A stretch of DNA of 64,000 bases from Candidatus Omnitrophota bacterium (GCA_021735445.1 JAIPHA010000001.1:24396-88395); one strand, 5' to 3'; counted from the first letter of the stretch, positions 23,050-64,000 are shown. Notes: a model not told the origin generated them from the sequence alone. Made by a program: numbers and translations.

Positions 23050-23064
23050 AATTAAAAAAAAGAA

Positions 23065-45652: not shown

Positions 45653-45681
45653 TTGACAAAAAATAGGAAAAGAGATATGAT
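45653..45681 (+). promoter_or_regulatory. sigma70-like promoter candidate, TTGACA-17 nt-TATGAT
   Basis: A consensus -35, a 17-nt spacer and a near-consensus -10, lying 32 nt upstream of the 45713 ATG (Wzm-like gene). Confidence 0.4.
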
Positions 45682-45712: not shown

Positions 45713-46492
45713 ATGATTATAAACAGAATAAAAAAACTCTTTTATCAGCGCGATATCTTAGCGGAGATGGTTTTTAAGCAGTTTAGGGCCAGTTATTCCG
45801 GAGCGATGTTGGGGGTCTGGTGGGCTATAATCATTCCTTGTATTCTCGCTGTCTGTATAAATATAATTTTTACCACTGTTTTTAAAATAAACATCGAAAA
45901 TTTCACTTTTTTTGTGCTTTCGGGGATATTGCCCTGGTTGTTTTTTTCGGCAGCGGTGGTTGAGGCTACTAACTCATTTTTAACCGATGCCGCAATGTTT
46001 AGGCAAAAAATGCTGCCTTTGGAGTTTGTGCCGTTTAAATCTGTATTATCTAATTTTTTAAGTTTTTTAATCGGCATCGGTTTTCTTTTGCCTTTTTTTA
46101 TTATTTCTAATATCCAAATTATTAAAGTTTTACCGGCTTTAATTTTTGTGTTTATCTTTAATTTAATTTTTATTTTGGGGTTGTCTCTTATTTTTGCCGT
46201 GATCAATGTTTATTCCCGGGACATAATTCATTTTCTCTCTGTGGGCCTGATGGTTTGGTTTTGGATTACTCCTGTTTTTTATTCTTTGAATATGGTGCCT
46301 TATCCCTACCGTTGGATATCTATTTTAAATCCCATGACCTATTATGTAACTTCTTACCGCAGTATTTTATTTTACGGTAAGCTCCCTTCTTTACCGGTAG
46401 CAGTTACGGGCATTGTTTTAGCTTTAATTTTTATTATAGCCGGGAATTTATTTTTAATTAAAAAAGAACCGTCACTATTAAAACAACTATGA
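45713..46492 (+). CDS. ABC-2 type transporter permease (Wzm/TagG-like polysaccharide exporter)
   Basis: 259 aa with 6 TM helices, and the ABC-2 start DILAEMVFKQFRASYSGAMLGVWWAII. Confidence 0.75.
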   Translation: MIINRIKKLFYQRDILAEMVFKQFRASYSGAMLGVWWAIIIPCILAVCINIIFTTVFKINIENFTFFVLSGILPWLFFSAAVVEATNSFLTDAAMFRQKMLPLEFVPFKSVLSNFLSFLIGIGFLLPFFIISNIQIIKVLPALIFVFIFNLIFILGLSLIFAVINVYSRDIIHFLSVGLMVWFWITPVFYSLNMVPYPYRWISILNPMTYYVTSYRSILFYGKLPSLPVAVTGIVLALIFIIAGNLFLIKKEPSLLKQL

Positions 46493-49400: not shown

Positions 49401-49869
49401 TTTGAGCCTGGCAGGCGATTGGGCCCACCTTCCTGTTTCTCAGGTGTGGAAGATAAAACTAAGAGAAGATAAGCGAATAATTTGGGAGGTAGAAACTGAA
49501 GTCCATCAAGAGTTAGAGTTGGAGGCAATACAAAATAATCTTATGGTTTCACCTCTATATAAAGAGTGGGCGGCGCCTGGCTTTAGCCGGGGTGAATTTA
49601 GCGAGATTTTTACCGGTAGTTATGATATATTGCCCTTTAGGGCCTGGAGCGGGCCGGCTGACAAACTATTAGTTAAAAGCAGAGAGTTACCTGATTTGAG
49701 TTTTAGGCGGGATAAAACAAGCGGGGGGCTGCAAGGGCTTTTAGAAAATAGTGATTATTTTTACCGGTCTCGTTTGATTCAGTACCAACAGATTGGTGTC
49801 GAAAAATTGAAGCCGGGTAAATATAGTAATTTTAAAGGAGTGGTTGAAATTGAGCCGAAAGAAAATTAA
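46489..49869 (+). CDS. Wzt/TagH-like ABC ATPase with an about 870-aa C-terminal extension of four tandem repeat domains
   Basis: Walker A AQNGAGKTT, signature YSQGMYLRLAF (the Wzt/KpsT YSxGM type), Walker B ILLIDDIIAVGD and H-loop VTHQ, followed by four repeats of about 200 aa each. Confidence 0.8.
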   Translation: MKAVNLDNIWEKYRIKFVKENGVSWREVWALREVNFAVEQGEVLGIIAQNGAGKTTLLKIIAGMLMPDRGKVNVRGKVSTLMELGAGFNREFTGRENIILNARIYGLSKKDINIKMQEVIEFAGLGEFIDAPIKYYSQGMYLRLAFSLAISLDPDILLIDDIIAVGDEASSCRCIDKIRQLKKEGKTIILVTHQMDMVAQMCDRVIHLNKGKIIDAGSPGKIIPAYLETVGRKEGIKVFEKYDFRVVFNNGRLSLSYAGNPLTGKMGVSAVWFNPRINGWVSSKDLNWQNIAKDNASFIFEGSHQGFDSLQVWTISLEKDILEWTVKFEGKEIQNPHFDLGFRALYDHWVVEKKEEEFLPFLSKLNWQDLGTHDCFFGGVGMFSSQKSGSLPAFIFGQKKQAQKIKLFNTGYHNETRVAQSLLDSNCAEFYIRLFSQKRNLLKYMEKKKKELPASYRFCRLEYKHLRIEASGREKTIKIYYRGREVTAGCGMSVSFQRKEEWYSAVSARWKLVQKEDCIQGELFWPDFRLRQVWEISIKEGGVCWKADIDTAKINEIDDFKMGILVREEYKRYVSGHQEGVFPKDFTNWMDIDLEDKKAEHLGTNASGDLPGIILTNKGRWMNVVENSDKKNRCRALQFRLPFRNFKEKGFSTEINIFKDNLFAGKCVEEKKPFWPSNLVSVSAAAVKVGIDLDAKKIRLFYQGREISERACLRNHLLISEKGFESRFMGWQVEQISKDKAVLTMSIKNFPVVERWEFFCGEDNSLKIRIDLEVGKKVRIIDNGLSLELKDGYQSWFTAGEKGDFIAKKYENDTGAIRMKDSNVSAICLKSGESKNFPDLTFAFNPSCQDRIINLYKKRPGNDYGSSIGIYTAKLSTRKKSFFKPGSYNLLEGKMFFGKQPGLSSFQKKTNKVKLARPGLELNFYQGKGRLYWKGKEITAGLGIYSCFCHFGIWHDSSLAAWEVIEQNRDNLSLAGDWAHLPVSQVWKIKLREDKRIIWEVETEVHQELELEAIQNNLMVSPLYKEWAAPGFSRGEFSEIFTGSYDILPFRAWSGPADKLLVKSRELPDLSFRRDKTSGGLQGLLENSDYFYRSRLIQYQQIGVEKLKPGKYSNFKGVVEIEPKEN

Positions 49870-50260
49870 AGAAGCTGAAATATTTAAGAATCAGTTAAGA
49901 GTTAATTTTAAAGATAAAGCAATCCATATTTTTTGGCAAGGGAATAAGATAACTGAAAAAATAGGCCTAAATTCAGCGATAAGTACTTTTGGCCTATGGA
50001 CTAATTCTTCTTTTGCCGAATGGGAGGTAGTTGGCAGCGGCGAGAGCTGGATGAAATTAAAAGCCAGATGGAGTTATCTGCCGGTTATCCAATATTGGTC
50101 TCTAAAATTAGGCGATAATTATCAGATTGATTTAGAGATAGATATGGAGGTAGAGGAAGAGCTTTGTATTAAAGAGACTAAGCTATTGTTGTTGGTTTCT
50201 CCGCTTTATAAAAACTGGTTTAGCGGGTTTAGGGAGGAAAATTTTCCTCAGCTTAACGGT
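47230..50260 (+). repeat. five tandem divergent copies (about 0.55-0.65 kb each) of a protein-domain-coding repeat spanning the Wzt 3' region and the next gene's 5' end
   Basis: Visible by eye in the translations (FYQGREI..., LYWKGKEITAG..., IFWQGNKITEK... and recurring W-E-V/I...LPV-Q-W-I-L blocks). The copies are diverged at the nucleotide level. Confidence 0.55.
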
Positions 50261-52114
50261 TGGCAAGAGTTGTATAATTTTAGAGGCCACTCTGTTTTAA
50301 CCGGTGTGCGTTTTCCTCTTGACGGCGCGGTTCTTCCTCCGGTAGCTTTAGAATTTAAGCCTAAGAAGGGCTTAGAAAATTATACTTTTATCGAGAATCC
50401 TTCCGCGGAAATAAATACGCGTTTTCTGGGTGAAAAAATATTATTTAAGGGCAAGGAAAGGTATTTTTCTCCCGGATATCATAGCTGGTTTAGGACAAAA
50501 ATTAAAGTATTTGAAACTGAACAAGAAGTTAGCCGGTATATCGAGAGGCAGCGGAAGAAGTATTTTAGGAAAAAGAAACAAAATGTTTTAAAAAATAAAC
50601 CTTTAAATTATAAGCCTGCTGAGAAAGTGTTGTTAGCAAATATGCCTTGGCAGGATAAGGCGCGTCAGGGGGTGCGGTCGGGATCGCGTTGGCCGCATAT
50701 GAAAGATAAAAGCGAAGGCAAATATTTGCCTTTTCCTTTTTTTTTAGCCTATAGCGCTTCTTTATTAAGGGCTAATGGGGTTAAGACGGATTTAATCGAT
50801 GCGATTGCAGAAAGAATGCAATCTGATGATTTTATCGAAACTCTTGCCGGTAAAAATATCGATTACTTGGTTGTAGAGACTTCGGTCCCTTCTTTTGATT
50901 ATGACATTAAATTATTGGAGAGAATTTCTTTATTGGGGATTAATATTATTTTATGCGGCCCTCATCCTTTGATAGCCTCTTCTGATTTTTTAGCTGAAAA
51001 TGATTTTATTGATTTTGTTATTTTTGGCGAATATGAAGTTACTCTGCTTGAGCTGCTTAAGTTTTTTTCTAAAAATGACAAAGATTTTTCCTCGATTAAA
51101 GGCTTGGTTTGGCGCAGGAGAAGCGGAGAGGTGGTAAAGAATGAAGCCAGGCCGCCTTTTGACATAAATATTTTGCCTTGGCCGCATCGGGAAAGTTTGC
51201 CGATGGAAAATTATTGGGACCTTCCCGGAGATATTCCTTATCCTTCGGTTCAGATGGTCGCATCCCGGGGATGCCCTTTTGGCTGTAATTTCTGCCTCTG
51301 GCCGCAAGTGCTTTTTGGAGGCAGCAGTTATCGGATTAGGAATATTAAAGATTGTATTGATGAGATGGAGTTTATGGTGAGAAAAAAGGGTTACAAATCA
51401 GTATATTTTGACGATGACACTTTTAATATCGGGAAAAGAAGGATGATTGAATTTTGTAATGAGATAATTAAAAGAGGGTTGGAAGATACCCCTTGGGCGA
51501 TTATGGCCAAGGCTGACCTGATGGATGAAGAAATTTTAGATAATATGAAAAAAGCCGGATTGTGCGCTGTAAAATATGGGGTAGAAAATGCCGAACAAAG
51601 TTTAGTTGACCGGTGCGGCAAGGGATTGGATTTAGCTAAAGCAAAAAGGATGATTGATTACACTAAAAGCTTGGGGATTAAGGTGCATCTTACTTTTTCT
51701 TTTGGCTTACGCGGCGAAACTAAAGAGACTATTGAAAAGACTATCGATTATGCCTTGAAATCAGACCCTGATTCGATACAGTTTTCCATAATCACTCCTT
51801 TTCCGGGGACACGGCTTTTTGAGGAATTGGAAAAGGAAGGAAAAATTTTAACCAGGGATTGGTCTTTATATGACGGGCATAACAGCTGTGTGTTTGCGCC
51901 CGATAACCTTTCCTGGCAGGATTTAAAAGATGCTAAAGATTACGCTTATAGGCTATGGGCTGATTGGCAGATGCGCAAAAGAGGCTGGCGGGGGAATCTT
52001 AATAGATTTTATAATTACAGTAAGTCCGGCGGGGTAAAAAAAGCTTTGTTAAAGAGCGGAAAATATTTAGGCTATCTTGTTTTCAAGCGAAGAAAATTTA
52101 TGGGAAAAATTTAA
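49844..52114 (+). CDS. B12-binding radical SAM protein with an N-terminal copy of the Wzt repeat domain
   Basis: The N-terminal approximately 150 aa are homologous to Wzt repeat 4 (LVSPLYKNWFSGF versus MVSPLYKEWAAPGF). They are followed by a B12-binding-like domain and VASRGCPFGCNFC. Confidence 0.7.
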   Translation: MKLSRKKIKEAEIFKNQLRVNFKDKAIHIFWQGNKITEKIGLNSAISTFGLWTNSSFAEWEVVGSGESWMKLKARWSYLPVIQYWSLKLGDNYQIDLEIDMEVEEELCIKETKLLLLVSPLYKNWFSGFREENFPQLNGWQELYNFRGHSVLTGVRFPLDGAVLPPVALEFKPKKGLENYTFIENPSAEINTRFLGEKILFKGKERYFSPGYHSWFRTKIKVFETEQEVSRYIERQRKKYFRKKKQNVLKNKPLNYKPAEKVLLANMPWQDKARQGVRSGSRWPHMKDKSEGKYLPFPFFLAYSASLLRANGVKTDLIDAIAERMQSDDFIETLAGKNIDYLVVETSVPSFDYDIKLLERISLLGINIILCGPHPLIASSDFLAENDFIDFVIFGEYEVTLLELLKFFSKNDKDFSSIKGLVWRRRSGEVVKNEARPPFDINILPWPHRESLPMENYWDLPGDIPYPSVQMVASRGCPFGCNFCLWPQVLFGGSSYRIRNIKDCIDEMEFMVRKKGYKSVYFDDDTFNIGKRRMIEFCNEIIKRGLEDTPWAIMAKADLMDEEILDNMKKAGLCAVKYGVENAEQSLVDRCGKGLDLAKAKRMIDYTKSLGIKVHLTFSFGLRGETKETIEKTIDYALKSDPDSIQFSIITPFPGTRLFEELEKEGKILTRDWSLYDGHNSCVFAPDNLSWQDLKDAKDYAYRLWADWQMRKRGWRGNLNRFYNYSKSGGVKKALLKSGKYLGYLVFKRRKFMGKI

Positions 52115-52118
52115 CTAA

Positions 52119-55100
52119 ATGGAATATTGGGATAAATTATTTGCGGCAATAGAAGAAGGCAGCGGCCGCCTTTGCGGGCCGCATACTTTACAAATTGACC
52201 TTACCGATAGGTGCAACAACGATTGTATAGGCTGTTGGGTCCACTCTCCTTTATTAGATAAAAAAGAAATTTTTCCAAATGGCAAAAAGGACCTCCCGTT
52301 TAGCCAGGTAAGGCATTTGATAGAAGACAGCGCTAAATTAGGAGTTAGAGAAATTATTCTTTCCGGTTCGGGAGAGCCTTTTCTTTATCCGGAGATAGAA
52401 GAAGTAATAAAGTTGATAAAAAACCGTGGAATTTATTTAAATATTATTACCAATGTTTTATTAATGGAGGAAAAGCTAGCCGAGCTATTAGTTAAATATC
52501 AAGTTGATTTGATAACCGCAAGCATTTGGGCTGGAAGCCCTGAAATTTATTCTTTGACTCATCCCGGCAAAAAAGAGAAAGATTTTTGGAAAATTAAAAA
52601 AAATTTATTAAAGTTAGCTTACTATAAGAAAAAATATAAATCATTATCGCCGCATTTAAAAATATACAATGTAATTTGCAGTAAAAATTATAGCGATCTG
52701 GAGGCAATGGTAGAGTTTGCTAAAGCTAGCGACAGTGACTCGGTAGAGTTTCAGGTTGTCGATATTATTCCCGGCCGGACCGATTCTTTAGCCTTAGACA
52801 GAAAACACAAGGAAGAAATAACTAATCAGCTGAAAAAAATAAGGCAGAAAGAGGAGATGGTATTTTTCAACTTTCCTCGGGATGTTGACTTAGAAGAGTT
52901 AATCGAAAAAGAAAATCTTGATTTTGGCAAAGTTTGGAAAAACAGAAAAAAAGGTTTTAGCGCTAAACAACTGCCTGATTCCTTGGTTTGCCCCAAAGGT
53001 TATCAGATTGATGAGCAACGGGAAATCGTTTCTGAGTCTATTTCTGTTACTGAGACAAAACCGGCTGTGTTTTGGTATAAATTTAAAAGCGATTTTTGCA
53101 ATAGTTGTGAAGATAACAACAGCTGCCTGGCTCGAGATAAAGCAATTAGCGTAAAGCTTCTTAGTATTTTGGGGATAGGCACTTTGTTAAGAAGAATATT
53201 TCGTTCTGATTTAGAAAAAGGTATTTATGAAAAACAAATTAATTATTTTCCTTGTTATATCGGTTGGTATTATGCCCGGATTTTAACCGACGGGACTATA
53301 ACGCCTTGTTGTAAAGCAGTCAATTTTCCTTTAGGTAATATCGGCAAAGATTCTTTTTTTAATACCTGGAACTCGCCGGCTTACAATGAATTTAGAAAAA
53401 AAGCTAAGGATTTAAATAAAAGCGACCCATACTTTGCCTCGATAGATTGCCTAAGGAGTTGTGATAATTGGGGGATGAATCTTACGGTAGGCAAAAGGCT
53501 AAAACAATTTAAAAACATCAATCCTTTAATAGTTAAAAATCAAGGCCAAAGGATAGTTATACTCGCGAAAAGTTTTACGGCCGGAAATCTTAATATCGGA
53601 GATCATAACTTTGGCAAAAATATAGTTGTAGACGGAGGCCAAAAAGAAGGCTTTGCCCGTTATCTGTTTAAGGTGCGGCAAGCAAAGAATTTTGAGTTGT
53701 GGGCTCGTTATGCTAGTGGAAGTTTTCGCCCGGTAGATATTTATATCGACGGAAAAATAGTTAAAAAGTCTGGGCTGAGTGAAATAACCGGGGGGTGGAC
53801 GGTTAATTATTTGAAATGGAATAAAGAAGCGGAAGTTAAATTAACTGAAGGAGAACACATTTTAGAGATAAGCTCAAAACAATGTATCCCTCATATTGAA
53901 CAATTAGGGTTATTCGAAACGGGAGCGTTACCCCGTCAGTTAAAGAAGGAAAGCAAAGCCGGTTATTGGCGGATGTTTAGCGAACATATTCTTGATAAAG
54001 GCTTGGCCGGCGCCTTAAGGAGAGTGCTTGATAATCTCGCTCCGGATCAGATTAAAGACCGTTATCTGGAGATGCTAGGCATTTATGACCGGCGGTATGG
54101 TTATAAAGGCCCTTTTCATCTACAGATAGATTTAACTAATGATTGCAATAACAATTGTATTGCTTGTTGGTGCAACTCTTCGCTTTATAAAAAGCCGCGT
54201 TTGTCTAAAGAAGAAAAAAAACAATACCTTCCCTTTAGGTTAGTTAAAGAGCTTTTAGATGATGCTTCTCGAATGGGGGCAACCGAGGTATATTATTCCG
54301 GGTCAGGAGAACCTTTTATGCATCCCCGAATTATGGATATTTTAGAGTATACTAAAAAAAAGGGGTTAATTTGCCATGTAAATACTAATTTTACTCTCCT
54401 AAATAAAGAAAGGCTGGACCGCCTTATCAAGATAGGCTTGGATTACCTGACAGTAAGCACCTGGGCCGGAAGCAAAGAGATATATGCCAAGACTCACCCT
54501 AATAAAACCGAATCCGAGTTTGAGAAAATAAAAGATAATCTTATTTATCTTAACAAAAACAAAAAATGTGCCCCCTCAATTAAGCTTTATAATGTGCTTT
54601 TTAATATGAATTATTTTGAAATTGATAAGATGATTGAGTTTGCGAAAAAAACCGCTTCGGAGTCGGTGGAGTTTACTTTAGTCGACACTATCCCCGGTGT
54701 TACCGACGTGTTAGCTTTAGGCGAGAGCCAGTTAAAGGAGCTTAAAAGAAGATGTGAGGATATTCAATATAAGTTAGAGCAGGAAAGTAAACTAAAAGGA
54801 AGCAGTTTGACCCTTTTTCAGTTTGATCAGTTTTTACGGCGAGTTTCGAATTCGGCCGATGCCAAACAGGCAAAATATGATAAAGGGGTAATCGATAGCA
54901 TGCCTTGTTATATTGGTTGGCTTTTTGCCCGGATAGTGCCTAACGGAGAGGTCCATTCCTGCTTAAAAGCGCACCGGATACCGACCGGTTCTTTATACTC
55001 TAAAAAGTTTTCAGAGATTTGGAATTCGCCTCAGCAAGCTAATTTTCGAAAAAAAACCTGTGTTTACCGTAAAGATGACCCTTTTTTTAGATTAATTGGC

Positions 55101-56378
55101 AATGATCCGGAAACAAAGGAAGCGGGGTGCTATAAAAGCTGTGACGATATTGGCAGGAACAGCTGGATGCATAAAAGAATGACGATGTTGACCCGGCCGG
55201 AAAAAGCTTTTTTAAAAGTTGCCGCTAAGGGCTTAAAATTGGCCAGGAAGATTAATCTGCCTCGAAAGACTTCTTTAAGACAAGGTAAGAATCTCCGCAT
55301 CGCGGGGATTCGGCAGGGGCGTCAAGCTTTTCAAGGGCCTGAACAGGTAGTGGTTGATTTAACCAATAGATGTAATTTGCGTTGCCTGTCTTGTTGGCTC
55401 TATTCTCCTTTGCTTGCCGGAAGCCAACCATCTTATGATTCATTAAATCAAGAGTTACCCGGGAAGAAGGTGTTTAAACTTATTGATGATTTAGCCTCTA
55501 TGGGCACCGAACGGATACGTTTTACCGGGGGAGGAGAGCCTCTTATCCATAAAGATTTTTTTCGCTTAGTTGAATATGCGCATAAGCGGGGATTATTGGT
55601 AGGGGTTACCACTAATTTCGGCTTAATTGATAAAAAGGGAATTTCCAGGCTTGTAAACGCAGGTTTAGAAGAGTTGTGCATTAGTATTTGGGCCTCTAAC
55701 CTTGGTACTTATTGTAAGGTTCACCCGGGGACTGATTCCCGCTATTTTGAAAAACTAAAAAATAATTTAGCTTACTTACAAAAAATGAAAACAGGTAAAC
55801 CGCGGATTACTTTTGCTAATGTAATTATGAATAAAAATGTTAACGATTTTACGGAGATGTATAATTTCGGGCGTAAATTCGGGGCAGATGCTTTGTATTT
55901 TACTATAGTAGATATTTTATCCGGCCAGACCGATTCTCTTTTGTTAAATCCCAAACAGCGGGATCAGCTAAAAGCAGAAGCCTTAGCGGTTGAAGAAAAA
56001 GCCGGTAGAGAGGGGATAGAATTAGAGTTTTTTGAAGGGTTTATGAATAGGTTGGACCAAGATAAAGAAGATTTTCAAAAAGGAGAATATGATAAATCTT
56101 TAGTCAACCAGATACCTTGTTATGTGGGATGGATATTTTCCCGTATTTTGGCCGATGGGAGCATAGCGCCTTGCTGCAGGGGGGTTAAGAAGATAATGGG
56201 AAATATTAATAAAGAAAGTTTTAAAAATATATGGTTTTCGGATAAATACAATGAATTTAGGGCTAAAGCTAAATATTTATCCAAACAAGATAGTTATTTT
56301 AAAGAAATAGGCTGCACTAAAGAGTGTGATAATCTTATGCATAATCAGGAAATGGAGAGAAGGATTTTAGAAGGGTGA
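52119..56378 (+). CDS. triple radical SAM/SPASM fusion protein (1419 aa) with an inserted beta-sandwich (CBM-like) domain
   Basis: Three colinear units carry CNNDCIGC, CNNNCIAC and CNLRCLSC. Each is followed by SGSGEP or GGGEP and a SPASM-like C-Y-I/V-G-W...PCC/SC...C...C block. The insert lies at about aa 470-620. Confidence 0.75.
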   Translation: MEYWDKLFAAIEEGSGRLCGPHTLQIDLTDRCNNDCIGCWVHSPLLDKKEIFPNGKKDLPFSQVRHLIEDSAKLGVREIILSGSGEPFLYPEIEEVIKLIKNRGIYLNIITNVLLMEEKLAELLVKYQVDLITASIWAGSPEIYSLTHPGKKEKDFWKIKKNLLKLAYYKKKYKSLSPHLKIYNVICSKNYSDLEAMVEFAKASDSDSVEFQVVDIIPGRTDSLALDRKHKEEITNQLKKIRQKEEMVFFNFPRDVDLEELIEKENLDFGKVWKNRKKGFSAKQLPDSLVCPKGYQIDEQREIVSESISVTETKPAVFWYKFKSDFCNSCEDNNSCLARDKAISVKLLSILGIGTLLRRIFRSDLEKGIYEKQINYFPCYIGWYYARILTDGTITPCCKAVNFPLGNIGKDSFFNTWNSPAYNEFRKKAKDLNKSDPYFASIDCLRSCDNWGMNLTVGKRLKQFKNINPLIVKNQGQRIVILAKSFTAGNLNIGDHNFGKNIVVDGGQKEGFARYLFKVRQAKNFELWARYASGSFRPVDIYIDGKIVKKSGLSEITGGWTVNYLKWNKEAEVKLTEGEHILEISSKQCIPHIEQLGLFETGALPRQLKKESKAGYWRMFSEHILDKGLAGALRRVLDNLAPDQIKDRYLEMLGIYDRRYGYKGPFHLQIDLTNDCNNNCIACWCNSSLYKKPRLSKEEKKQYLPFRLVKELLDDASRMGATEVYYSGSGEPFMHPRIMDILEYTKKKGLICHVNTNFTLLNKERLDRLIKIGLDYLTVSTWAGSKEIYAKTHPNKTESEFEKIKDNLIYLNKNKKCAPSIKLYNVLFNMNYFEIDKMIEFAKKTASESVEFTLVDTIPGVTDVLALGESQLKELKRRCEDIQYKLEQESKLKGSSLTLFQFDQFLRRVSNSADAKQAKYDKGVIDSMPCYIGWLFARIVPNGEVHSCLKAHRIPTGSLYSKKFSEIWNSPQQANFRKKTCVYRKDDPFFRLIGNDPETKEAGCYKSCDDIGRNSWMHKRMTMLTRPEKAFLKVAAKGLKLARKINLPRKTSLRQGKNLRIAGIRQGRQAFQGPEQVVVDLTNRCNLRCLSCWLYSPLLAGSQPSYDSLNQELPGKKVFKLIDDLASMGTERIRFTGGGEPLIHKDFFRLVEYAHKRGLLVGVTTNFGLIDKKGISRLVNAGLEELCISIWASNLGTYCKVHPGTDSRYFEKLKNNLAYLQKMKTGKPRITFANVIMNKNVNDFTEMYNFGRKFGADALYFTIVDILSGQTDSLLLNPKQRDQLKAEALAVEEKAGREGIELEFFEGFMNRLDQDKEDFQKGEYDKSLVNQIPCYVGWIFSRILADGSIAPCCRGVKKIMGNINKESFKNIWFSDKYNEFRAKAKYLSKQDSYFKEIGCTKECDNLMHNQEMERRILEG

Positions 56379-56411
56379 TTTAAACTAATCTGTATTAAGA
56401 GGAGTTATCAG

Positions 56412-59150
56412 ATGGAACTTAAAGATAAAAGAACAGAGAAAGAAAGCAGTTTTAAACCGGCTTTTATTCAGATAGACTTTCAGATTACCGCTAAATGCAA
56501 CGCTAAATGTATGTTTTGCCAGTGTTGGCGGGATAGCGCTAATCTTGGCGCTAAGGATTTACCGGGAGAAAAATGGATAGAGTCTGCTCAAAAGTTAAAA
56601 GATTTTACTAATCTGGATTTGGTTTGCATTGGGGGCGGCGAACCCTTGCTTTATCCGCATCTTTTTCAGGTGTTAAAGGGGCTGCGCCGCCTGGAAATAC
56701 CTTCTGTGGTAGTCACCAACGGGAGCCTCTTTTCAGAGGAGAATTGCAAAAAAATTATTGATTCAGGGGTAGGGCATATTGATTTTTCTCTGGATTCTTT
56801 TTCTGAGAAGCATAACCGGATGCGTGGATTTCCCGGATTGTTTGAAAAGTGCTGTGAAGCGATGGATACTTTAAAAAGAATTTCTCCCAAGATAAGCCTG
56901 GGGGTATCTACTTTAATTTGCGGGGAAAATATTTCTGAATTACCTGAGTTTACTGAATGGAGTTTAGGCAATTTACCGATTGATGCTATCAATTTTCAGG
57001 CTTACAACCAGGTCGTGGATTATTCCGGCAATAATTGGTGGGAAAAATCACTTTTATGGCCAAAGAATAGAGAAACCGTAATTAGAGTAATGGATTGTCT
57101 GATAAAAAAAGGAGAAGAAGGAGCAAGGATAGCCAATAATCCCATTCAGCTGGAGAAATTTAAAAGGTATTTTCTAAATCCGGAAAGTAAACTTAATATA
57201 AAATGCCCGGCCGGAGCTTTTAATTTTTCTGTTAGCCATCAGGGTAATATAATCGGATGTATCGCAGAATCGCCGCTGGGAAATATTAAAGAGAGTAATC
57301 CTGTCGATGTATACAAGCAAAAATTCGGCAATATTAGGCAGAAAGCCAGCCAGTGCAAGGAAAACTGCCATTTTTTAATTAACTGTTATTTTCCTCTTCA
57401 TTGGAAGCGCTGGAATAGTATAGTCAAAGATATGGTAAAAGAAGGCGAGGAGGATTATAAGCCGGGTAAGGTGATTTTGCCTCCGGAGATAAAAGAAATT
57501 ACTTCTGTCCCGGTTGAGGGGTATCCGGATTTAATCAATCATAAAGACTATAGCCATTTGGATTCAATCGGAAAATATAAAGATAGCTTTGAAAACAGAA
57601 AGATGCCCTGTACTCCGGAAGGTTTGCCCCAAATTTACCTTTGCGGGGATAGTTCGGAGGTTCACCGCTGGGGAGTGGATTTAGAAGAAAATGATTTTTT
57701 TAAGCAGTTAGATAAGCTTAAACAGTTATCCCGAGAGAAGTTGGTATATCATACGGTAGTTGGAGTAAGGAGGACGAATTTTTACCGTTTAGGGAAAATA
57801 TATAATTTGATAAGAAGAGTGAAGGAAGAAAAGGAAGTTGATTTTCCCAAGTTCAACATTAAACCGTTTAAAGACGTAAAAGAACGGTTTTACCGGTATT
57901 TAACTGTGATAAATAGCTTTACAAAGAAAGAGGGAGTAGAATTCAGGATAACAGACAAGCGGTTGGATCAATTGTTAGGCATTATTGAAGAAAGCCAAAA
58001 ACAAAAAGGTTTAGAAGAAAATGATTTTTGGCGCGCTTTGGGCCCGGTATGCAAGGATGCGTTTATTGGACCGCGTTTTATTTTGCTTGATTTAGCCGGC
58101 CGTTGCAACCTTGATTGCGTCTATTGTAGAAGATTCTCTCCTTGGAATAAAGAATATTGGCGGAAGCAGCATCCGGAGCTTTCCGGGTTTATAGATTTTG
58201 AGGTTGTTAAAAATGTGCTTTTAGACGCTAAGGAGATGGGGGTAGAAACAGTGCTTTTGGTAGGAGGCGGAGAGCCGACTCTTCATCCTAAATTTAAAGA
58301 AATAATTGAGCTTATCAGCAAATTGGGAATGAAGTTTAATTTTTCCACCAACGGAGTTTTGCTGGGTTTATATAATAATTATTTAGTAGACGGCCATTGT
58401 GACAGCGTTACCGTTAGCCTTTCTTTTGCCAGCAAAAAATCATTTTCTTCTATCCGTCCGACTTCTAATAGCAAGGTTATGAAAAATATAGAAAAAAATG
58501 TAAAAAAATTAGCAAAATTAAAGGCGAGCCGAAAAGCTGCCTATCCCGGGATTATTGCTTTGTATGCTATTTGTAAATATAATTATAAAGAGATTTTAAA
58601 GATGGTAGCTCAGGCAAAAAAAATAGGCGCAGATACGATATGGTTTCAGTTGACTCATTTAGAAGATTTCAGCCGGGACAAGCTTTATATTGAAGCTAAG
58701 GAGATGGAAAAGGTAAAAGAGTTATTGAGCCGGGCAAAAGCTCTTGCTCAGAAAAAAGGATTGTCTTTTAATTCGTTTATCGAATTTGAGATGAATCATT
58801 ATGACCAAAAACGGGGCGATTGGTCTAAGAAGGGATTGTTGAAGCAAGGCTGTTTTGTCGGCTGGCATTTTTCTTTTATTCATCTAAGGCAGGAAGTTTT
58901 TATGTGCTGCGGGGCCAAAACCGTGGGTATTTTAGATAAAGGAGGAAGAGGCTTTAAAGACCTTTGGTTTTCCGATGCATATCGCCGCTACCGCAATGAC
59001 GGCCTTATAATGCATAGAGAAAATCCTCTTACCATCTATGGTAAACCTTTGTATGAAAAATATTGTGATTCCTGTGACAACCATGACCAAAATACGAAAA
59101 TGTTAAAGTTGATAAAAAAATATAAGTTAGCTGAATTTGTGCAGCGGTGA
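56412..59150 (+). CDS. double radical SAM fusion protein (912 aa)
   Basis: Unit 1 has CNAKCMFC with GGGEPLL and a CPAG...GCIA...CKENCH cluster. Unit 2 has CNLDCVYC with GGGEPTL and GCFVGW...MCCG...CDSCDNHD. A strong SD (AAGAGGAG) precedes the gene. Confidence 0.75.
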   Translation: MELKDKRTEKESSFKPAFIQIDFQITAKCNAKCMFCQCWRDSANLGAKDLPGEKWIESAQKLKDFTNLDLVCIGGGEPLLYPHLFQVLKGLRRLEIPSVVVTNGSLFSEENCKKIIDSGVGHIDFSLDSFSEKHNRMRGFPGLFEKCCEAMDTLKRISPKISLGVSTLICGENISELPEFTEWSLGNLPIDAINFQAYNQVVDYSGNNWWEKSLLWPKNRETVIRVMDCLIKKGEEGARIANNPIQLEKFKRYFLNPESKLNIKCPAGAFNFSVSHQGNIIGCIAESPLGNIKESNPVDVYKQKFGNIRQKASQCKENCHFLINCYFPLHWKRWNSIVKDMVKEGEEDYKPGKVILPPEIKEITSVPVEGYPDLINHKDYSHLDSIGKYKDSFENRKMPCTPEGLPQIYLCGDSSEVHRWGVDLEENDFFKQLDKLKQLSREKLVYHTVVGVRRTNFYRLGKIYNLIRRVKEEKEVDFPKFNIKPFKDVKERFYRYLTVINSFTKKEGVEFRITDKRLDQLLGIIEESQKQKGLEENDFWRALGPVCKDAFIGPRFILLDLAGRCNLDCVYCRRFSPWNKEYWRKQHPELSGFIDFEVVKNVLLDAKEMGVETVLLVGGGEPTLHPKFKEIIELISKLGMKFNFSTNGVLLGLYNNYLVDGHCDSVTVSLSFASKKSFSSIRPTSNSKVMKNIEKNVKKLAKLKASRKAAYPGIIALYAICKYNYKEILKMVAQAKKIGADTIWFQLTHLEDFSRDKLYIEAKEMEKVKELLSRAKALAQKKGLSFNSFIEFEMNHYDQKRGDWSKKGLLKQGCFVGWHFSFIHLRQEVFMCCGAKTVGILDKGGRGFKDLWFSDAYRRYRNDGLIMHRENPLTIYGKPLYEKYCDSCDNHDQNTKMLKLIKKYKLAEFVQR

Positions 59151-59159
59151 TAAACAATT

Positions 59160-60617
59160 ATGGCAGTTAACAATGATCCAGCTAGAAAAGTTTTGATAGC
59201 GGTATGCCCGATGTGGGACATAAGATGGCCGCCTCTGGGGTTAAGCTATTTGGCTTCTTATCTTGAGAGCCAGGGTATTGCCGTTGATATTTTAGATATA
59301 AATATAGATGTTTATTCAAATTCGTCCACCGAGCGAAAAGAACTTTGGAGGATGGAGAGTTATAATCATTGGTTTTTTGAAGATAAATTCGAACGATTGG
59401 CTTTTCAGGATCAGATAGACCAATATGCGCAAAACATTTTAGATAAGGGTTATCAAGTAGTAGGTTTTTCTTTATATGCGGCTAATATTTTATTTTCGGT
59501 TAAACTGGCTACTATTTTAAAAAAAGCAAACCCCGAGCTATTCATTATCTTCGGCGGGCCGGCTTGCTGGTTCCTTCACGACCATCCTAAGATGCCTATC
59601 CAATATATGGTTTCACCTAAAACCAGCGAATCCTTCATTGAACCCGGCGTGGTAGATGTTTTTGTAAGAGGAGAAGGGGAAGAGGCGGCTAAAAGGGTAA
59701 TACTATCACATTTTAATAGTTATAAAGACAAGGTTCCCGGCACAGTAGTTTATTCGCAAGGAAGATATATTATCCAGGAGCCGCCGCAGCGGATAAATGA
59801 CTTAGATAAATTACCCTATCCGGATTGGGAAAGGGTTTCCCTGGACCTCTACCGGGAAGAGATAGGGGTGCCGATATTATTTAGCAGGGGGTGTGTTAAC
59901 AGATGCGCTTTTTGTATTGATTGGAAAATCTGGCAGAAAAAATACCGGGTTAGGTCCGCCGAAAATATTTTTCAGGAAATGAGGGAAGTAGTAGAAAAAT
60001 ATAAGGTGAATGTATTTGTATCCAATGATTTATTGTTTAACGCAAGATTAGATGTATTGGAAGATTTAGCCGGCTTTATTATAAATTCGGGATTAAAGAT
60101 ATCCTGGAATGTCCAGGGGTTGATAAGGGCGGACATGGGGTTTCCTTTATTAAGAAAAATGCGGGTAAGCGGCCTTGAGAGGGTGACTTATGGAGTTGAG
60201 AGTTTATCTGACAAAGTGCTTAAAGATATGGGGAAGCCGTATAATTTTTCCGATATTCAAAAGGTATTAAGAAACAGCAAAAAAGCCGGAATTGTTACCG
60301 CTTTTAACCTTATTGTGGGTTTTCCGACAGAAAGTGAAAAGGATTTTATCCAAACAAAAGAAAGGCTGGCTTTGATAAAAGATGATGTTGACATGATAGC
60401 CGGATTACAGGGTTGCGGCTTAAAAGACGGTTCTGATATATATATGCATCCTGAAAAATATTCTATTTTACCGGAGCTAAAAAATGATTTTTGGAAAAGC
60501 CTGAGAGGGAATAATAATTTAGAAGTCAGACAAAGAAGGATTAATGAGTTGTCTGATTTTGCTCAAAAATTAGGTTTAAAGATTGAATTTAAAGGGATTC
60601 CCGCTCCAAGCAGTTAA
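59160..60617 (+). CDS. B12-binding-domain radical SAM protein
   Basis: N-terminal KVLIAVCPMWD...LGLSYL...VVGFSL (B12-binding-like), then FSRGCVNRCAFC. Confidence 0.7.
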   Translation: MAVNNDPARKVLIAVCPMWDIRWPPLGLSYLASYLESQGIAVDILDINIDVYSNSSTERKELWRMESYNHWFFEDKFERLAFQDQIDQYAQNILDKGYQVVGFSLYAANILFSVKLATILKKANPELFIIFGGPACWFLHDHPKMPIQYMVSPKTSESFIEPGVVDVFVRGEGEEAAKRVILSHFNSYKDKVPGTVVYSQGRYIIQEPPQRINDLDKLPYPDWERVSLDLYREEIGVPILFSRGCVNRCAFCIDWKIWQKKYRVRSAENIFQEMREVVEKYKVNVFVSNDLLFNARLDVLEDLAGFIINSGLKISWNVQGLIRADMGFPLLRKMRVSGLERVTYGVESLSDKVLKDMGKPYNFSDIQKVLRNSKKAGIVTAFNLIVGFPTESEKDFIQTKERLALIKDDVDMIAGLQGCGLKDGSDIYMHPEKYSILPELKNDFWKSLRGNNNLEVRQRRINELSDFAQKLGLKIEFKGIPAPSS

Positions 60618-60629
60618 AATGGTTTATCT

Positions 60630-63600
60630 ATGAAAACAGAAAAAAAATCTTTTCCCAGATATTTATCTATTCAAACCACTTCTTTATGTAATGCTTCTTG
60701 CCTGTTTTGCCCTTACGATGAGGTGAAGAGTTTATTCCCGGCTAAAGTTATGGAGCCCGGCCTCTATAAAAAAATAATAGATGAATCGAGCGAGCATAAG
60801 GAAATAGAAAGAATTATACTGTATATGAACAACGAGCCTTTAACTGATCCGGATATTATAGGAAGGATTAATTATGCAAAAGAAAAGTTGCCTGGGGCAA
60901 GCGTGCATCTTTTGACTAACGGAACGTTGCTTGATGAGAGGATGGCGGATCAGCTTATAAAATCCCGGCTGGATTGGCTGGGGATTAGCTTTCATGGAAT
61001 AAGGAAAGAAACAATTGAAAAAACAATGGGGATTTCTTATGATTTAGCCTTTAGCCGGATTAATAAATTTATCGAAAAGGTTAAAAAAAGTAAAAAATTA
61101 AAAGAATACTTGATGGTTACTTTGATAAAGCATAAATATTTAAGCGAAGAGGAAAAAAATCAGGCGATAAAATTTTGGAAAAGGAAGGGAATAGAAAGAA
61201 TATCTTATTTTAAAAGGCCAATTTCGCGGGCAGGCAACATTAAGAGGTTACCTAAAGTATACAACCAAGGCAAGATTACCGGTTGTAAATCTATCTGGGC
61301 CGATGAAATGCTGCATGTTGTAGAAGACGGGAAAGTGGTTTTGTGTTGTATGGACTGGAAGAGGGAAGTTGTTTTGGGAGACCTTAACAATCAGACGGTT
61401 AAAGAAGTATGGCAGGGCAGAAGAAAAAAAACATGGGAGATGATTCAGAGGCAAAGCCAAATGCCGGCTGACTTTTTGTGCAGGAGGTGCGAGGAAGCGG
61501 TTGTTGAGGAGCCGGCAAATGTTTTACTGGTGAACCTTCCTCCCTGGGGTGTAGATAACCCACCTTTGGCGGTAGCTTGCCTGGGTGGCTATCTCCAGGC
61601 AAAAAATATCGAAGTTGATATTTTCGATATGAATATAGAACTTTTCAATAATAGCCCTGCCAAAGATAGGCATCTTTGGAGCATGAACTATTCTCATCTT
61701 TGGCGGCAGAAAAAAGATTATGAAAAGATACGGAGATTGCTGGATAGCCAAATTAATTATTTAATTGAAAAAGTTATAAATTCTGATAAAAAAATAGTTG
61801 GTTTTTCTCTGCCGACTAATTGCTCGCTTTTTATCCTGAGAGAGATAACAGAAAAGCTTAAAAATAGCGGCAGCAAAAAGATAATTATTGCCGGGGGAGG
61901 GTCGGTTTCGATAAAAGAACAAAGAGAAGAACTACACCATATAGCCGGACAATTTATAGATTACTATGTTGCCGGTGAAGGAGAGGAGGTTCTTTATAAA
62001 ATTATTGAATGCCTGAATCAAAAAAACCCAGCTGGTATAGAAAGTTTAGAGGGGGTATTTACAAAAGGAAAAAATAAGGAGTCCGGCTTAGCCCAGATAA
62101 AGGATTTAAATTCTTTGCCTTATCCTTCTTTTGATAAGTTGGATTTAAAAAATTACCAAGCGCCGGAAAGTTTGCCGATGGAGTTTTCCCGGGGGTGTGT
62201 GGGCAGGTGTACTTATTGCGCTTTTAAAACGGTTTCGCCTCTTTTTAGAATAAAATCAGCTTCTTACTTATTTCATCAAATCAGGTCTCACCAGCAAAAA
62301 TACGGAATGAAGCATGTGAGTTTTTCTGATGCTGCGATTAATGGTAATCCGGCTGTTTTAGGGGAGTTGTGCGATTTGTTAATTAAAGAAAAAGTAGAGG
62401 TGAAGATGTCGGCTTTGGCGATCCCCCGCCCAGAGATGACTTTGGTTTTTTTAAAAAAAATGGGCCGGGCCGGATTTTACCGCCTGGAGTATGGAGCAGA
62501 AAGCGGCTCCGATAAAGTTTTAGGCCTTATGCGCAAAATTTTTACGGTTAAGTCCGCCCAACAGGTAATAGAAGATTCGTCGAAGGCGGGAATCAAAGTT
62601 TACCTTTATTTTATTGTAGGGTATCCGGGCGAATCAAAAGAAGACTTTTTAAAGACTAAAAAATTTTTGAAAAAAGTTGCTCCTTTTGTAACTATGATTA
62701 AATCAATCAACCCTCTTTTTGTTATGGCCGGTTCGGAGTTATCTTGTTTGCCTGAAAAATACGGCATTAATTTCGGCGAAAAAAACCGGGATATTAATTG
62801 GTTTACCAAGGATAATACTATTGATATCAGGAAAAGACGGGTTGAGGAGTTAAAGAATTATGCAAGGCAAATAAGAATCCCTTTTACCGAAGAAGGTGAG
62901 CATTTGGAATTTACCGGATTTTTTCCTGCAAAAAGGTGTGAAATTTTATTTCTTAACTTACCTCCCTGGGCTCAGGATAATCCTCATATCGGGGTAGGAT
63001 ACCTTTGTTCATATTTGCGTAAGCGGGGTGTTTTTCCTAGGGTGATTGACTTAAACAAGAGGTTTTTTCTAAATTATCCCGAATATAAAATGCTCTGGCA
63101 TGTGGAAAATAAAAATTTCTGGTCTAATCCAGACACTTATCCTTTAGTTGCGGATATATTTAAAGAGGGGATGAATCAGGCTATCTCTGAGGTTGTTAAG
63201 GTAAATCCCCTATTGGTAGGAATTTCTGTGGTGGACCCTAAGGAAAGGTTGGCTATAGATTTTATTAAACGGATAAAAAGGCGGCTTCCGGACAGTAAAA
63301 TAATATTGGGCGGGCCGGCTGTTTCTACCGCCAAGCAACGACAAATTTTTTTAGATCAAGCCGGCAGAGATATTGATTTGTTTGTTATCGGAGAAGGGGA
63401 AGAACGGTGCTATACAGCTGTAAACAGAGCAAAAGAGAAAAAAAGTTTAGCGAAAATAAACGGAACTATAGTTAAGACAGCAGACGGCTGGGAAGAAACT
63501 TTTCTTAAACCAAGCAAAACTATCGCGCAGATTCCGTTTCCTACTTACCAAGAGTTTGATATGGAAAGTTACGGAAAATCTCTCTTGGTAGAGTGGTCAA

Positions 63601-64000
63601 GGGGCTGCCATAACCGTTGTTCATTTTGTAAAAATTGGCGCCTTTTTCCTTTTTACCGGCCTAAGGCGCCGGAGAAAGTCCTGGATGAGTTAAAATACCA
63701 GATTAATATCTACGGGATAAGAAAATTTACGGTAGTGGATTCTATCTTAAATGGAGACCCTGATAAGCTTTATCAAGTTTGTTCTTTGATTATTGATAAT
63801 GATTTGGATATAGATTGGAGTGGCCAGATAGCGCCCAGTGAAAAAATGAGTTATAGCTTTTTTAAACATATGCGTCAGTCTGGGTGCCGGCAGCTACAGA
63901 TTGGGGTTGAAAGCGCAGATAACAGAGTGTTAAAAAAGATGCGTAAAAGTTATACGGCCGAAATGAGCCAAAAGGCGGTACGAAACGCCAAAAGAGCGGG
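60630..64000 (+). CDS. multi-domain radical SAM fusion, 3'-truncated by the window end (more than 1123 aa)
   Basis: Absent from the ORF track because it has no in-window stop. My codon-by-codon translation from the ATG at 60630 finds no stop through 64000. Rounded to codon boundaries, domain 1 is about 60630-61515, domain 2 about 61516-62943 and domain 3 about 62944 to beyond 64000. Domain 1 carries CNASCLFC with a C-terminal CC...CRRC cluster. Domain 2 has a B12-binding-like N-terminus followed by FSRGCVGRCTYC. Domain 3 has a second B12-binding-like N-terminus followed by WSRGCHNRCSFC. Confidence 0.7.
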   Translation, partial: MKTEKKSFPRYLSIQTTSLCNASCLFCPYDEVKSLFPAKVMEPGLYKKIIDESSEHKEIERIILYMNNEPLTDPDIIGRINYAKEKLPGASVHLLTNGTLLDERMADQLIKSRLDWLGISFHGIRKETIEKTMGISYDLAFSRINKFIEKVKKSKKLKEYLMVTLIKHKYLSEEEKNQAIKFWKRKGIERISYFKRPISRAGNIKRLPKVYNQGKITGCKSIWADEMLHVVEDGKVVLCCMDWKREVVLGDLNNQTVKEVWQGRRKKTWEMIQRQSQMPADFLCRRCEEAVVEEPANVLLVNLPPWGVDNPPLAVACLGGYLQAKNIEVDIFDMNIELFNNSPAKDRHLWSMNYSHLWRQKKDYEKIRRLLDSQINYLIEKVINSDKKIVGFSLPTNCSLFILREITEKLKNSGSKKIIIAGGGSVSIKEQREELHHIAGQFIDYYVAGEGEEVLYKIIECLNQKNPAGIESLEGVFTKGKNKESGLAQIKDLNSLPYPSFDKLDLKNYQAPESLPMEFSRGCVGRCTYCAFKTVSPLFRIKSASYLFHQIRSHQQKYGMKHVSFSDAAINGNPAVLGELCDLLIKEKVEVKMSALAIPRPEMTLVFLKKMGRAGFYRLEYGAESGSDKVLGLMRKIFTVKSAQQVIEDSSKAGIKVYLYFIVGYPGESKEDFLKTKKFLKKVAPFVTMIKSINPLFVMAGSELSCLPEKYGINFGEKNRDINWFTKDNTIDIRKRRVEELKNYARQIRIPFTEEGEHLEFTGFFPAKRCEILFLNLPPWAQDNPHIGVGYLCSYLRKRGVFPRVIDLNKRFFLNYPEYKMLWHVENKNFWSNPDTYPLVADIFKEGMNQAISEVVKVNPLLVGISVVDPKERLAIDFIKRIKRRLPDSKIILGGPAVSTAKQRQIFLDQAGRDIDLFVIGEGEERCYTAVNRAKEKKSLAKINGTIVKTADGWEETFLKPSKTIAQIPFPTYQEFDMESYGKSLLVEWSRGCHNRCSFCKNWRLFPFYRPKAPEKVLDELKYQINIYGIRKFTVVDSILNGDPDKLYQVCSLIIDNDLDIDWSGQIAPSEKMSYSFFKHMRQSGCRQLQIGVESADNRVLKKMRKSYTAEMSQKAVRNAKRA

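Follow-up and report, generated by a model that had tools for sequence, protein, structure and literature searches.

The DNA analysed here, a stretch of 64,000 nucleotides (nt) from Candidatus Omnitrophota bacterium (GCA_021735445.1, JAIPHA010000001.1:24396-88395; hereafter the window, whose coordinates we use throughout), ends within an open reading frame (ORF) that starts at position 60630 of the plus strand. This ORF is the 5' 85% of one genuine 1319-codon Omnitrophota gene. As judged from conserved motifs, its product has three separate radical S-adenosylmethionine (SAM) active sites: one in a module related to the butirosin enzyme BtrN (module A) and two in modules of the cobalamin (B12)-binding type (B1 and B2), followed by a predicted membrane tail. 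Our overall reading, that a real gene with three radical SAM sites serves the serial radical tailoring of a lipid-linked polysaccharide, has in our estimate a probability of about 0.65; we infer the substrate, topology and reaction types of the protein by analogy with characterised enzymes.

Reading frame and extent of the gene

A sequence-only reading of the window had proposed that a single gene, lacking a stop within the window, fuses a non-B12 radical SAM enzyme to two B12-binding radical SAM modules. Translation from 60630 to 64000 confirms 1123 codons with zero stops, compared with 89 and 101 stops in the two remaining forward frames, and the fusion itself is supported by Pfam, by independent contigs and by orthologues. 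The gene is missing from the supplied ORF track because the ORF tool does not list any ORF that continues past the window edge, as had been presumed. The stop is reached at 3960 nt (1319 amino acids (aa), no internal stop) in three contigs: L089, L090 and L091, from NCBI assemblies GCA_021735145.1 and GCA_021735085.1 and the Logan assembly of SRR12088349. All three, which were recovered via exact-sequence lookup of the 485-aa protein encoded upstream, are 100% identical to the window ORF over 3371 nt, and they place the stop, by extrapolation, at coordinate 64589, outside the window. Exact-match scans of a metagenome collection, with the final 54 nt of the window and the opening 50 nt of the gene as probes, returned no match. 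Over 49160-64000 the window and L089 (JAIPHO010000001.1) differ by 6 mismatches in 14,841 nt. The identical protein is already public as MCF7875011.1 and under three other accessions, all named only 'radical SAM protein [Candidatus Omnitrophica/Omnitrophota bacterium]'.

The possibilities of a frameshift and of a sequencing error affecting a stop can be excluded. The 91.8%-identical orthologue P0001 (locus L001) shows zero indels relative to the target, and the nucleotide differences between the two are distributed 62/42/171 over the three codon positions. The ratio of non-synonymous to synonymous substitution (dN/dS) is 0.141 overall, with 0.158 in module A, 0.135 in B1 and 0.137 in B2; the junctions between modules are conserved in sequence, and selection is uniform across them. 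A dN/dS of about 0.14 in every module, together with the absence of indels, argues against a frameshift artefact.

Pfam finds three stretches of Radical_SAM (PF04055, 189 bits), two of B12-binding (PF02310, 65.7 bits) and one of SPASM (PF13186, residues 224-288, 37.7 bits against a cutoff of 21.5) on the window protein, all above gathering cutoffs, and a sub-threshold match to Radical_SAM_N2. The motifs quoted in the sequence-only reading are all in place: CNASCLFC, LCC...CRRC, LLVNLPPWGVDNPPLAVACLGGYL...FSRGCVGRCTYC and ILFLNLPPWAQDNPHIGVGYLCSYL...WSRGCHNRCSFC. With PF04055, the CX3CX2C motifs at C20, C523 and C993 assign the protein to the radical SAM superfamily, and each of the three is kept in at least 18 of the 19 proteins with one module A and two B modules (A-B-B; 37-91% identity). 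The features of the gene are as follows.

60630-64000, plus strand: target gene, first 1123 of 1319 codons (open frame; contigs L089-L091; protein identical to MCF7875011.1)
60630-61517, plus strand: module A, aa 1-296, BtrN-like Twitch radical SAM (Pfam Radical_SAM and SPASM; PDB profile; AlphaFold2 (AF2) model and Foldseek)
60687-60710, plus strand: CX3CX2C of module A, C20/C24/C27 (CNASCLFC), predicted radical SAM [4Fe-4S] site (sequence motif)
61284-61490, plus strand: auxiliary-cluster (Twitch) region, C219-x14-G234-x4-C239, C240 and C284-x2-C287 (invariant cysteines)
61518-62939, plus strand: module B1, aa 297-770, class B radical SAM, type 5 (Pfam B12-binding and Radical_SAM; typing)
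62196-62219, plus strand: CX3CX2C of B1, C523-C530, FSRGCVGRCTYC (sequence motif)
62940-64000, plus strand: module B2, aa 771-1123 of about 1245 (truncated by the window edge), class B, type 4 (Pfam; fold; typing)
63606-63629, plus strand: CX3CX2C of B2, C993-C1000, WSRGCHNRCSFC (sequence motif)
61205-61751, minus strand: four short overlapping antisense ORFs of 61-75 aa in different frames (61205-61390, 61248-61460, 61399-61602 and 61524-61751); not genes, as they lie opposite coding sequence with a dN/dS of 0.14
62606-62809, minus strand: a single antisense ORF of 67 aa; not a gene, as it lies opposite coding sequence under strong purifying selection

The sequence-only reading was thus right to call the minus-strand ORFs spurious, though it took the four at 61205-61751 for one.

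The modules, the tail and their family

BtrN (2-deoxy-scyllo-inosamine (DOIA) dehydrogenase of butirosin biosynthesis, PDB 4M7T) is the closest known counterpart of module A: both are of about 250-300 aa and share the C-x(n)-G-x4-C...C-x2-C pattern of a single auxiliary cluster. A profile of 28 module-A sequences matched BtrN in the PDB at E 6e-21 (the next entry at 1.4e-5), over both the radical SAM core and the C-terminal auxiliary-cluster domain. C24 and C20 of the radical SAM motif are each present in 18 of the 19 A-B-B proteins and C27 in all 19; in the 28 module-A sequences all three are invariant. Cysteines 219, 239, 240, 284 and 287 are invariant in both sets; the last four make up the LCC...CRRC tail. 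BtrN cysteines align to C219, C239 (the GX4C position), C284 and C287, and C240 lies opposite a BtrN phenylalanine. The AF2 model of module A is of high confidence (predicted local distance difference test (pLDDT) 91.9, predicted template modelling score 0.90), and Foldseek places BtrN (4m7t) at the top of its matches, followed by SuiB, anSME, BlsE, MoaA and DesII, with CteB and SkfB also matched. The label 'SPASM-type' given to this module in the sequence-only reading is borne out by the Pfam match, but the CX2CX5CX3C block of a full seven-cysteine SPASM domain with two auxiliary clusters is absent. The four invariant BtrN-aligned cysteines and the top fold match place module A in the Twitch (half-SPASM) subclass; it is best described as a predicted BtrN-like Twitch module with one auxiliary cluster and one extra invariant cysteine, C240. 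It also differs from BtrN in being fused to B12-radical SAM modules and a tail, and in residing in a surface-glycan rather than an aminoglycoside cluster. BtrN acts on a carbohydrate-type substrate and, by analogy, that of module A would likewise be a sugar.

Both B modules show an 'NLPPW...' start, LLVNLPPWGVDNPPLAVACLGGYL preceding FSRGCVGRCTYC in B1 and ILFLNLPPWAQDNPHIGVGYLCSYL preceding WSRGCHNRCSFC in B2. The two PF02310 stretches, of which the best within B2 covers residues 849-926, mark them as class B, that is, as putative cobalamin binders, and the S-x-L/V...GG spacing is kept in both (S393...G422G423 and S866...G894G895). The sequence-only reading had described two full modules of this kind; both are present, but the second is incomplete within the window, since about 125 aa of B2, followed by the 70-aa tail, lie beyond 64000. 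A profile of A-B-tail proteins matched OxsB (1e-20), MgmA (9ccb, 1.5e-16), CysS, AprD4 and TokK in the PDB. In the model of P0012, the closest minimal (A-B-tail) relative (pLDDT 80, low confidence in the A-B linker at 277-313), the fold matches are TsrM, OxsB, MgmA, TokK and CysS. These enzymes, like GenK and GenD1, have the N-terminal B12-binding Rossmann domain and radical SAM barrel seen in B1 and B2. The closest PDB matches mix methylases with OxsB-type enzymes, and to our knowledge no sequence motif tells methylases from OxsB- or BchE-type enzymes. We take B1 and B2 to be anciently diverged modules of the cobalamin-binding class.

The tail that follows B2 consists of a basic stretch, KRKKQRRKRS, and a hydrophobic segment (Kyte-Doolittle 19-mer mean of 2.06 at residue 1281); most tail-type relatives have a matching tail, and in the P0012 model the terminal helix spans 822-849. 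A single C-terminal membrane helix is therefore predicted to anchor the protein. Because a basic stretch precedes this single terminal helix, the positive-inside rule suggests a cytoplasmic location for the catalytic modules, tethered to the membrane.

A homologue search returned 72 proteins, nearly all from metagenome-assembled genomes (MAGs) of Omnitrophota; their names are uninformative throughout. Dozens of independently assembled proteins at 36-91% identity share the fusion, and JGI, ENA, NCBI and Logan data together contain it in more than 60 distinct proteins. When the window modules are mapped onto the homologues, a common plan emerges in which the count of B modules differs: one in A-B-tail (about 845 aa), two in A-B-B-tail (about 1320 aa) and three in A-B-B-B-tail (about 1820 aa). 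Also present are A-B proteins of about 1020 aa whose C-terminus differs, A-X-B forms and fusions of A to a family 4 glycosyltransferase (GT4). Species-representative genomes contribute further forms: module A on its own (about 290 aa; in DPANN, the candidate phyla radiation (CPR) and others), A attached to the tail with no B module between, A-B4 giants (2300-2540 aa) and, from Desulfatiglandales, a 2778-aa protein with six radical SAM stretches. None of the representatives scanned has a module A above 67% identity, so the species of the window is not among them. In a census with the module-A profile (961 clusters at 50% identity, E <= 1e-30) most top matches are free-standing proteins of about 300 aa, so the fusions are a sub-branch of a broad family.

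Distance clustering of 157 B modules resolves discrete types that occur in fixed orders, with type 4 always adjoining the tail. The window protein is A-5-4-tail and so has the A-Bn-tail architecture. Other two-module forms are 8-4 and 10-4, three-module forms are 5-10-4, 10-5-4 and 8-10-4, and all six A-B4 proteins are 3-8-7-6. P0012 lacks B1, yet its A, B2 and tail share 81-85% identity with those of the window protein, which shows that modules have been gained or lost recently. By sequence, the target thus belongs to a modular A-Bn-tail family (n = 0-4) whose centre is Omnitrophota; Deltaproteobacteria-type MAGs, Bacteroidota, Acidobacteriota, DPANN and CPR have related forms.

Whereas known class B enzymes are soluble and single-module, members of the A-Bn-tail family carry one to four diverged B modules behind a Twitch module and are predicted to be membrane-anchored. 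FbiC (CofG+CofH) likewise has more than one complete radical SAM domain per chain, each with its own CX3CX2C; however, its domains are two fixed partners of one reaction, whereas the A-Bn-tail proteins combine B modules differently from lineage to lineage, in number (0-4) and in type, though in fixed orders. Literature searches on Omnitrophota radical SAM enzymes, on radical SAM with B12, O-antigen or polysaccharide, on tandem radical SAM proteins, on BtrN/Twitch enzymes and on glycan C-methylation found no description of this family: the sequence is public under a generic name, and its architecture class (Twitch, typed B12-radical SAM modules and membrane tail, within surface-glycan operons exceptionally rich in radical SAM domains) is undescribed in the literature so covered.

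Operon and glycan cluster

From 45713 to the window end all genes lie on the plus strand, separated by gaps of no more than 33 nt or by small overlaps. The strongest promoter-like site of the region (45653-45681) precedes this run, although the promoter and terminator scan as a whole gave no more than chance would (50 sites against 48.7 expected from shuffling). Downstream of the transporter genes, the run holds 10 radical SAM modules over five genes, the last being the target:

45713-46492, plus strand: Wzm-like ABC-2 permease, head of the run (Pfam)
46489-49869, plus strand: Wzt/TagH-like ABC ATPase, 1126 aa (Pfam; NCBIfam TagH/Wzt-like)
49844-52114, plus strand: B12-radical SAM protein, 756 aa, same operon (Pfam; NCBIfam HpnJ, 239.9 bits against a cutoff of 577.6)
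52119-56378, plus strand: 1419-aa protein with three radical SAM plus SPASM/Twitch modules, same operon (Pfam Radical_SAM and SPASM, three each)
56412-59150, plus strand: 912-aa protein with two radical SAM modules and a C-terminal SPASM match, same operon (Pfam)
59160-60617, plus strand: free-standing B12-radical SAM protein, 485 aa, type 10, 12 nt upstream of the target (Pfam; typing)

The 485-aa enzyme is 52-54% identical to the middle module of the homologues P0005, P0007 and P0014 and about 30% identical to B1 and B2. Three-module relatives carry type 10 fused between types 5 and 4, and because the same module type is fused internally there, the 485-aa enzyme is probably a functional partner of the target. 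The two adjacent genes together provide the module set of one fused protein elsewhere, a natural fusion/fission link.

The 1419-aa protein, with CX3CX2C motifs at aa 32, 676 and 1085, exceeds the NCBIfam cutoff for N_Twi_rSAM (175.1 bits against 170), and relatives have counterparts of 1412-1431 aa in syntenic position. The 912-aa protein, with motifs at 29 and 565, is kept upstream of the target in relatives; in the 91%-related strain of locus L001 (5668-8399) its orthologue is called as two genes (237 and 572 aa) separated by a small antisense ORF, which may reflect a strain-level disruption or fission. The 756-aa protein has an N-terminal extension of about 280 aa to which no family is assigned; HpnJ, the family it resembles, acts on hopanoid head groups, where it contracts a sugar ring. 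In the Wzt/TagH-like ATPase, matches to known families are confined to the first ~245 residues. Its C-terminal extension of about 880 aa, without a Pfam match and retained in relatives of 1126-1165 aa, could be a very large glycan-recognition module.

The window as a whole is part of a glycan cluster of more than 64 kb, with GT9, several GT2 and GT4 enzymes, five PMT_2-type GT-C enzymes, a Bac_transf initiating transferase and a Wzx-like flippase. It also encodes three DegT-type aminotransferases and one of class III, an epimerase/dehydratase, a nucleotidyltransferase-GT2 fusion and a split transketolase. Nineteen radical SAM modules exceed the Pfam cutoff, several of them concatenated in single genes, and one more is sub-threshold (751-1644); this is a density far above that of ordinary O-antigen or capsule loci. 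The run containing the target is syntenic in relatives, where it is followed by further glycosyltransferases, a WecA/MraY-type transferase, Wzy_C, a polysaccharide deacetylase and carbamoyltransferases; Wzm/Wzt, GT2/GT4, PMT_2, Wzy_C and sugar epimerases recur in conserved synteny.

Characterised Wzm/Wzt O-antigen and teichoic-acid pathways likewise start with an ABC-2 permease and a TagH/Wzt-like ATPase, surrounded by GT2/GT4 enzymes, a Bac_transf-type initiating transferase and sugar-nucleotide enzymes. They use conventional SAM methyltransferases, kinases and acyltransferases, in contrast to the 19 radical SAM modules of this locus, and their Wzt proteins are unlike the one found here with its unassigned extension.

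Direct fusions tie module A to glycosyltransferases in three architectures across phyla. These include A-GT4 (P0071 and a protein of an Auribacterota MAG) and GT4-GT4-A proteins from Lewinella, Neolewinella, Acidobacteriota, Bacteroidota and a gammaproteobacterial MAG; one B12-radical SAM-GT4 fusion was also found. The GT4-GT4-A proteins are of about 1050 aa with a C-terminal Twitch radical SAM module resembling module A (loci L069-L077 and L083; for example L072, 7682-10843, Neolewinella aquimaris DSM 105137), and the Neolewinella gene adjoins a GT9 gene. An A-B4 giant of 2314 aa outside Omnitrophota neighbours a GT4-radical SAM-SPASM protein (905 aa) and a carbamoyltransferase-radical SAM-SPASM protein (928 aa), both at L057, 152-6238, and lies near a sugar epimerase/dehydratase; the two proteins are additional cases of radical SAM modules joined to sugar-tailoring enzymes. 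The GT4 fusions and the conserved synteny together link the target to glycan synthesis.

Synteny breaks immediately 3' of the target (L089, 15525-19970, compared with L001, 13840-22168). In L089 an AsnB-like amidotransferase, a polysaccharide deacetylase, a GT2, an epimerase and a carbamoyltransferase follow; in the 91%-identical L001, a 130-aa signal-peptide protein, GT4s, GT2s, an amine oxidase, a WecA-type transferase and Wzy_C. The break resembles the edge of a variable cassette of glycan genes, consistent with the hypervariable polysaccharide cassettes reported for Omnitrophota (10.64898/2026.06.07.730766).

Further from the target, four PMT_2-type (GT-C, ArnT/PMT-like) membrane glycosyltransferase genes at 21571-24568, 26630-28042 and 43268-45538 (the last on the minus strand) are interleaved with small radical SAM genes at 20514, 24569 and 25614, an arrangement that suggests periplasmic transfer of modified sugars from polyprenyl-phosphate carriers. 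The split transketolase has its thiamine pyrophosphate (TPP) domain at 2731-3594 and its Pyr and C domains at 3597-4538; transketolases of this kind can make branched-chain or two-carbon-extended sugars. A 'PEP_mutase' gene (12139-12969) adjoins a gene for an AMP-binding enzyme (12985-14490) and a 451-aa ORF (10601-11956) without an assigned family. The 'PEP_mutase' gene and the PhpK/Sden_1168-like scores of the B modules raised the idea of P-methylation of a phosphonoglycan, which we rejected as unsupported; the gene has its best score, 152 against a cutoff of 354, as methylisocitrate-lyase-like and reaches only 83.6 against 319.55 as a true PEP mutase, and the PhpK score is 136 against 600.

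Proposed role and competing explanations

We propose that each module performs its own radical step on sugars of an undecaprenyl-linked polysaccharide, or on its precursors, before export by the ABC transporter. In ABC-transporter-dependent pathways, glycans linked to undecaprenyl pyrophosphate are assembled at the cytoplasmic face of the membrane, which is where the anchored modules would act. Module A would abstract a hydrogen from a sugar C-H at a hydroxyl-bearing carbon to yield a ketone, as BtrN does, and the keto sugar could then be aminated by aminotransferases of the cluster. Alternatively, module A might catalyse epimerisation if the invariant Cys240 hands a hydrogen atom back; cysteines donate hydrogen in radical SAM epimerases. 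B1, B2 and the type-10 partner would each use methyl-cobalamin to methylate a different unactivated carbon, much as GenK, GenD1 and MoeK5 C-methylate sugars. A cobalamin-dependent rearrangement by the B modules is less likely than methylation; such a rearrangement, or a dehydration, comes into consideration since the nearest solved relatives include OxsB and AprD4.

Several observations weigh against this proposal. Identity between module A and BtrN is only about 17% in structural alignment, and no 2-deoxystreptamine pathway genes were identified in the window cluster; module A is thus not a BtrN orthologue in the sense of a DOIA dehydrogenase. No module of the target reaches a curated NCBIfam cutoff (TIGR03975 rSAM_ocin_1, TIGR04479 PhpK, TIGR03471 HpnJ, TIGR02026 BchE, TIGR04072, TIGR04317 and others): the best scores are 73.7 against 380 for module A, 119.8 against 281.85 (TIGR03975) for B1 and 136.3 against 600 (PhpK family, TIGR04479) for B2. 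Accordingly, no function is transferable, and we rejected function transfer from NCBIfam equivalogs. The nearest solved relative of the B modules by sequence is OxsB, which contracts a ring rather than methylating, and the B12-less dehydratase AprD4 matches them too, so 'methyltransferase' is only the commonest outcome for this fold. Finally, a membrane anchor fits a lipid substrate equally well.

It is conceivable, though in our view unlikely, that the target tailors soluble precursors, either nucleotide-activated sugars or an aminoglycoside-like small molecule, and that its tail merely localises it. BtrN, enzymes of the GenK/GenD1 type, DesII and BlsE all act on small soluble sugars, and the aminotransferases, epimerase/dehydratase and nucleotidyltransferase-GT2 fusion of the window typify nucleotide diphosphate-sugar pathways. 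However, both the conserved C-terminal anchor and the joining of module A directly to GT4 favour a step that takes place at glycosyl transfer or later, and the target resides in the Wzm/Wzt operon, not among the precursor genes.

The anchor enters again into a second, distinctly less probable explanation: by analogy with the archaeal and bacterial trio of Hbs (a SPASM/Twitch radical SAM enzyme), Hgm and Grs (B12-radical SAM), the protein might modify membrane lipids, cross-linking, cyclising or methylating hydrocarbon chains or a glycolipid head group. Omnitrophota have been reported to carry Hbs and Mss homologues, with Hbs, Hgm and Grs clustered (10.1101/2023.10.20.563219). The window contains an LPG_synthase_TM gene, the 756-aa protein upstream is most HpnJ-like, and TIGR04072 (ladderane-type), HpnJ and HpnR are among the sub-threshold NCBIfam matches, with scores about as high as those of other families, a point that also counts against polysaccharide tailoring. 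Yet all these lipid-family scores fall far short of cutoff (97-101 bits against 360, for example). Neither the 64-kb window nor the related loci with annotated genes yielded a Tes- or Mss-type synthase; the neighbours of 912 and 1419 aa reach only 69-90 bits against a Tes cutoff of 450. The context of glycosyltransferases, flippase or ABC exporter, Wzy_C and sugar enzymes holds in all lineages examined, and module A is repeatedly fused to GT4.

Very improbable is a role in maturing a ribosomally synthesised and post-translationally modified peptide (RiPP) or a protein, with a SPASM-type cross-linker or epimerase and B12-dependent C-methylases acting on a peptide in a polytheonamide-like manner. 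SPASM/Twitch enzymes are common RiPP maturases, SuiB, CteB and SkfB appear among the fold matches of module A, and TIGR03975, 'RiPP maturation radical SAM C-methyltransferase', is the top NCBIfam entry for B1 and for the upstream gene, with ApyD scoring too. But TIGR03975 reaches only 119.8-128.6 bits per module against its cutoff of 281.85, and BtrN beats every peptide maturase by 15 orders of magnitude in the sequence profile. The Pfam matches of the target protein include no RiPP recognition element (RRE) or PqqD-type domain, and no precursor-like gene lies beside the target here; the small downstream ORF of relatives encodes a signal-peptide protein and is absent from this strain. That an assembly chimera or a sequencing error erased the stops between three genes, an initial concern of the sequence-only reading to which the similarly unusual length of the cluster neighbours might lend colour, has a vanishingly small chance of being true, given DNA identical in three independent assemblies, the recurrence of the fusion in dozens of distinct proteins, the lack of indels and the conserved junctions.

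Most of what is known of radical SAM and B12-radical SAM enzymes comes from antibiotic, cofactor, lipid and peptide pathways; the enzymes are nearly always soluble and single-module. This locus points to an unexplored use of such chemistry: multi-site, membrane-tethered radical SAM enzymes built from interchangeable modules in the surface-glycan clusters of Omnitrophota. The natural fusions and fissions of the family show which radical SAM enzymes work together, and the GT4-GT4-A proteins of cultured Lewinella and Neolewinella are a tractable entry for biochemistry. A broader and tentative idea, which we think may well be wrong, is that the A-Bn-tail proteins, their free-standing paralogues and the neighbours with two and three radical SAM modules form a combinatorial, membrane-bound radical-tailoring line for surface polysaccharides, in which module number, type and order (5-4, 8-4, 10-4, 5-10-4, 10-5-4, 3-8-7-6 and others) set a lineage-specific pattern of C-methylation or other radical changes to the glycan. 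Were this true, it would imply heavily C-branched sugars, undescribed in bacterial envelopes, and diversification through gain, loss and fission of modules like that of polyketide synthases and nonribosomal peptide synthetases. If polysaccharide tailoring by the target holds, Omnitrophota would make polysaccharides with several radical-installed changes, such as C-methyl, keto/amino or epimerised sugars, which could shape the properties of the cell surface.

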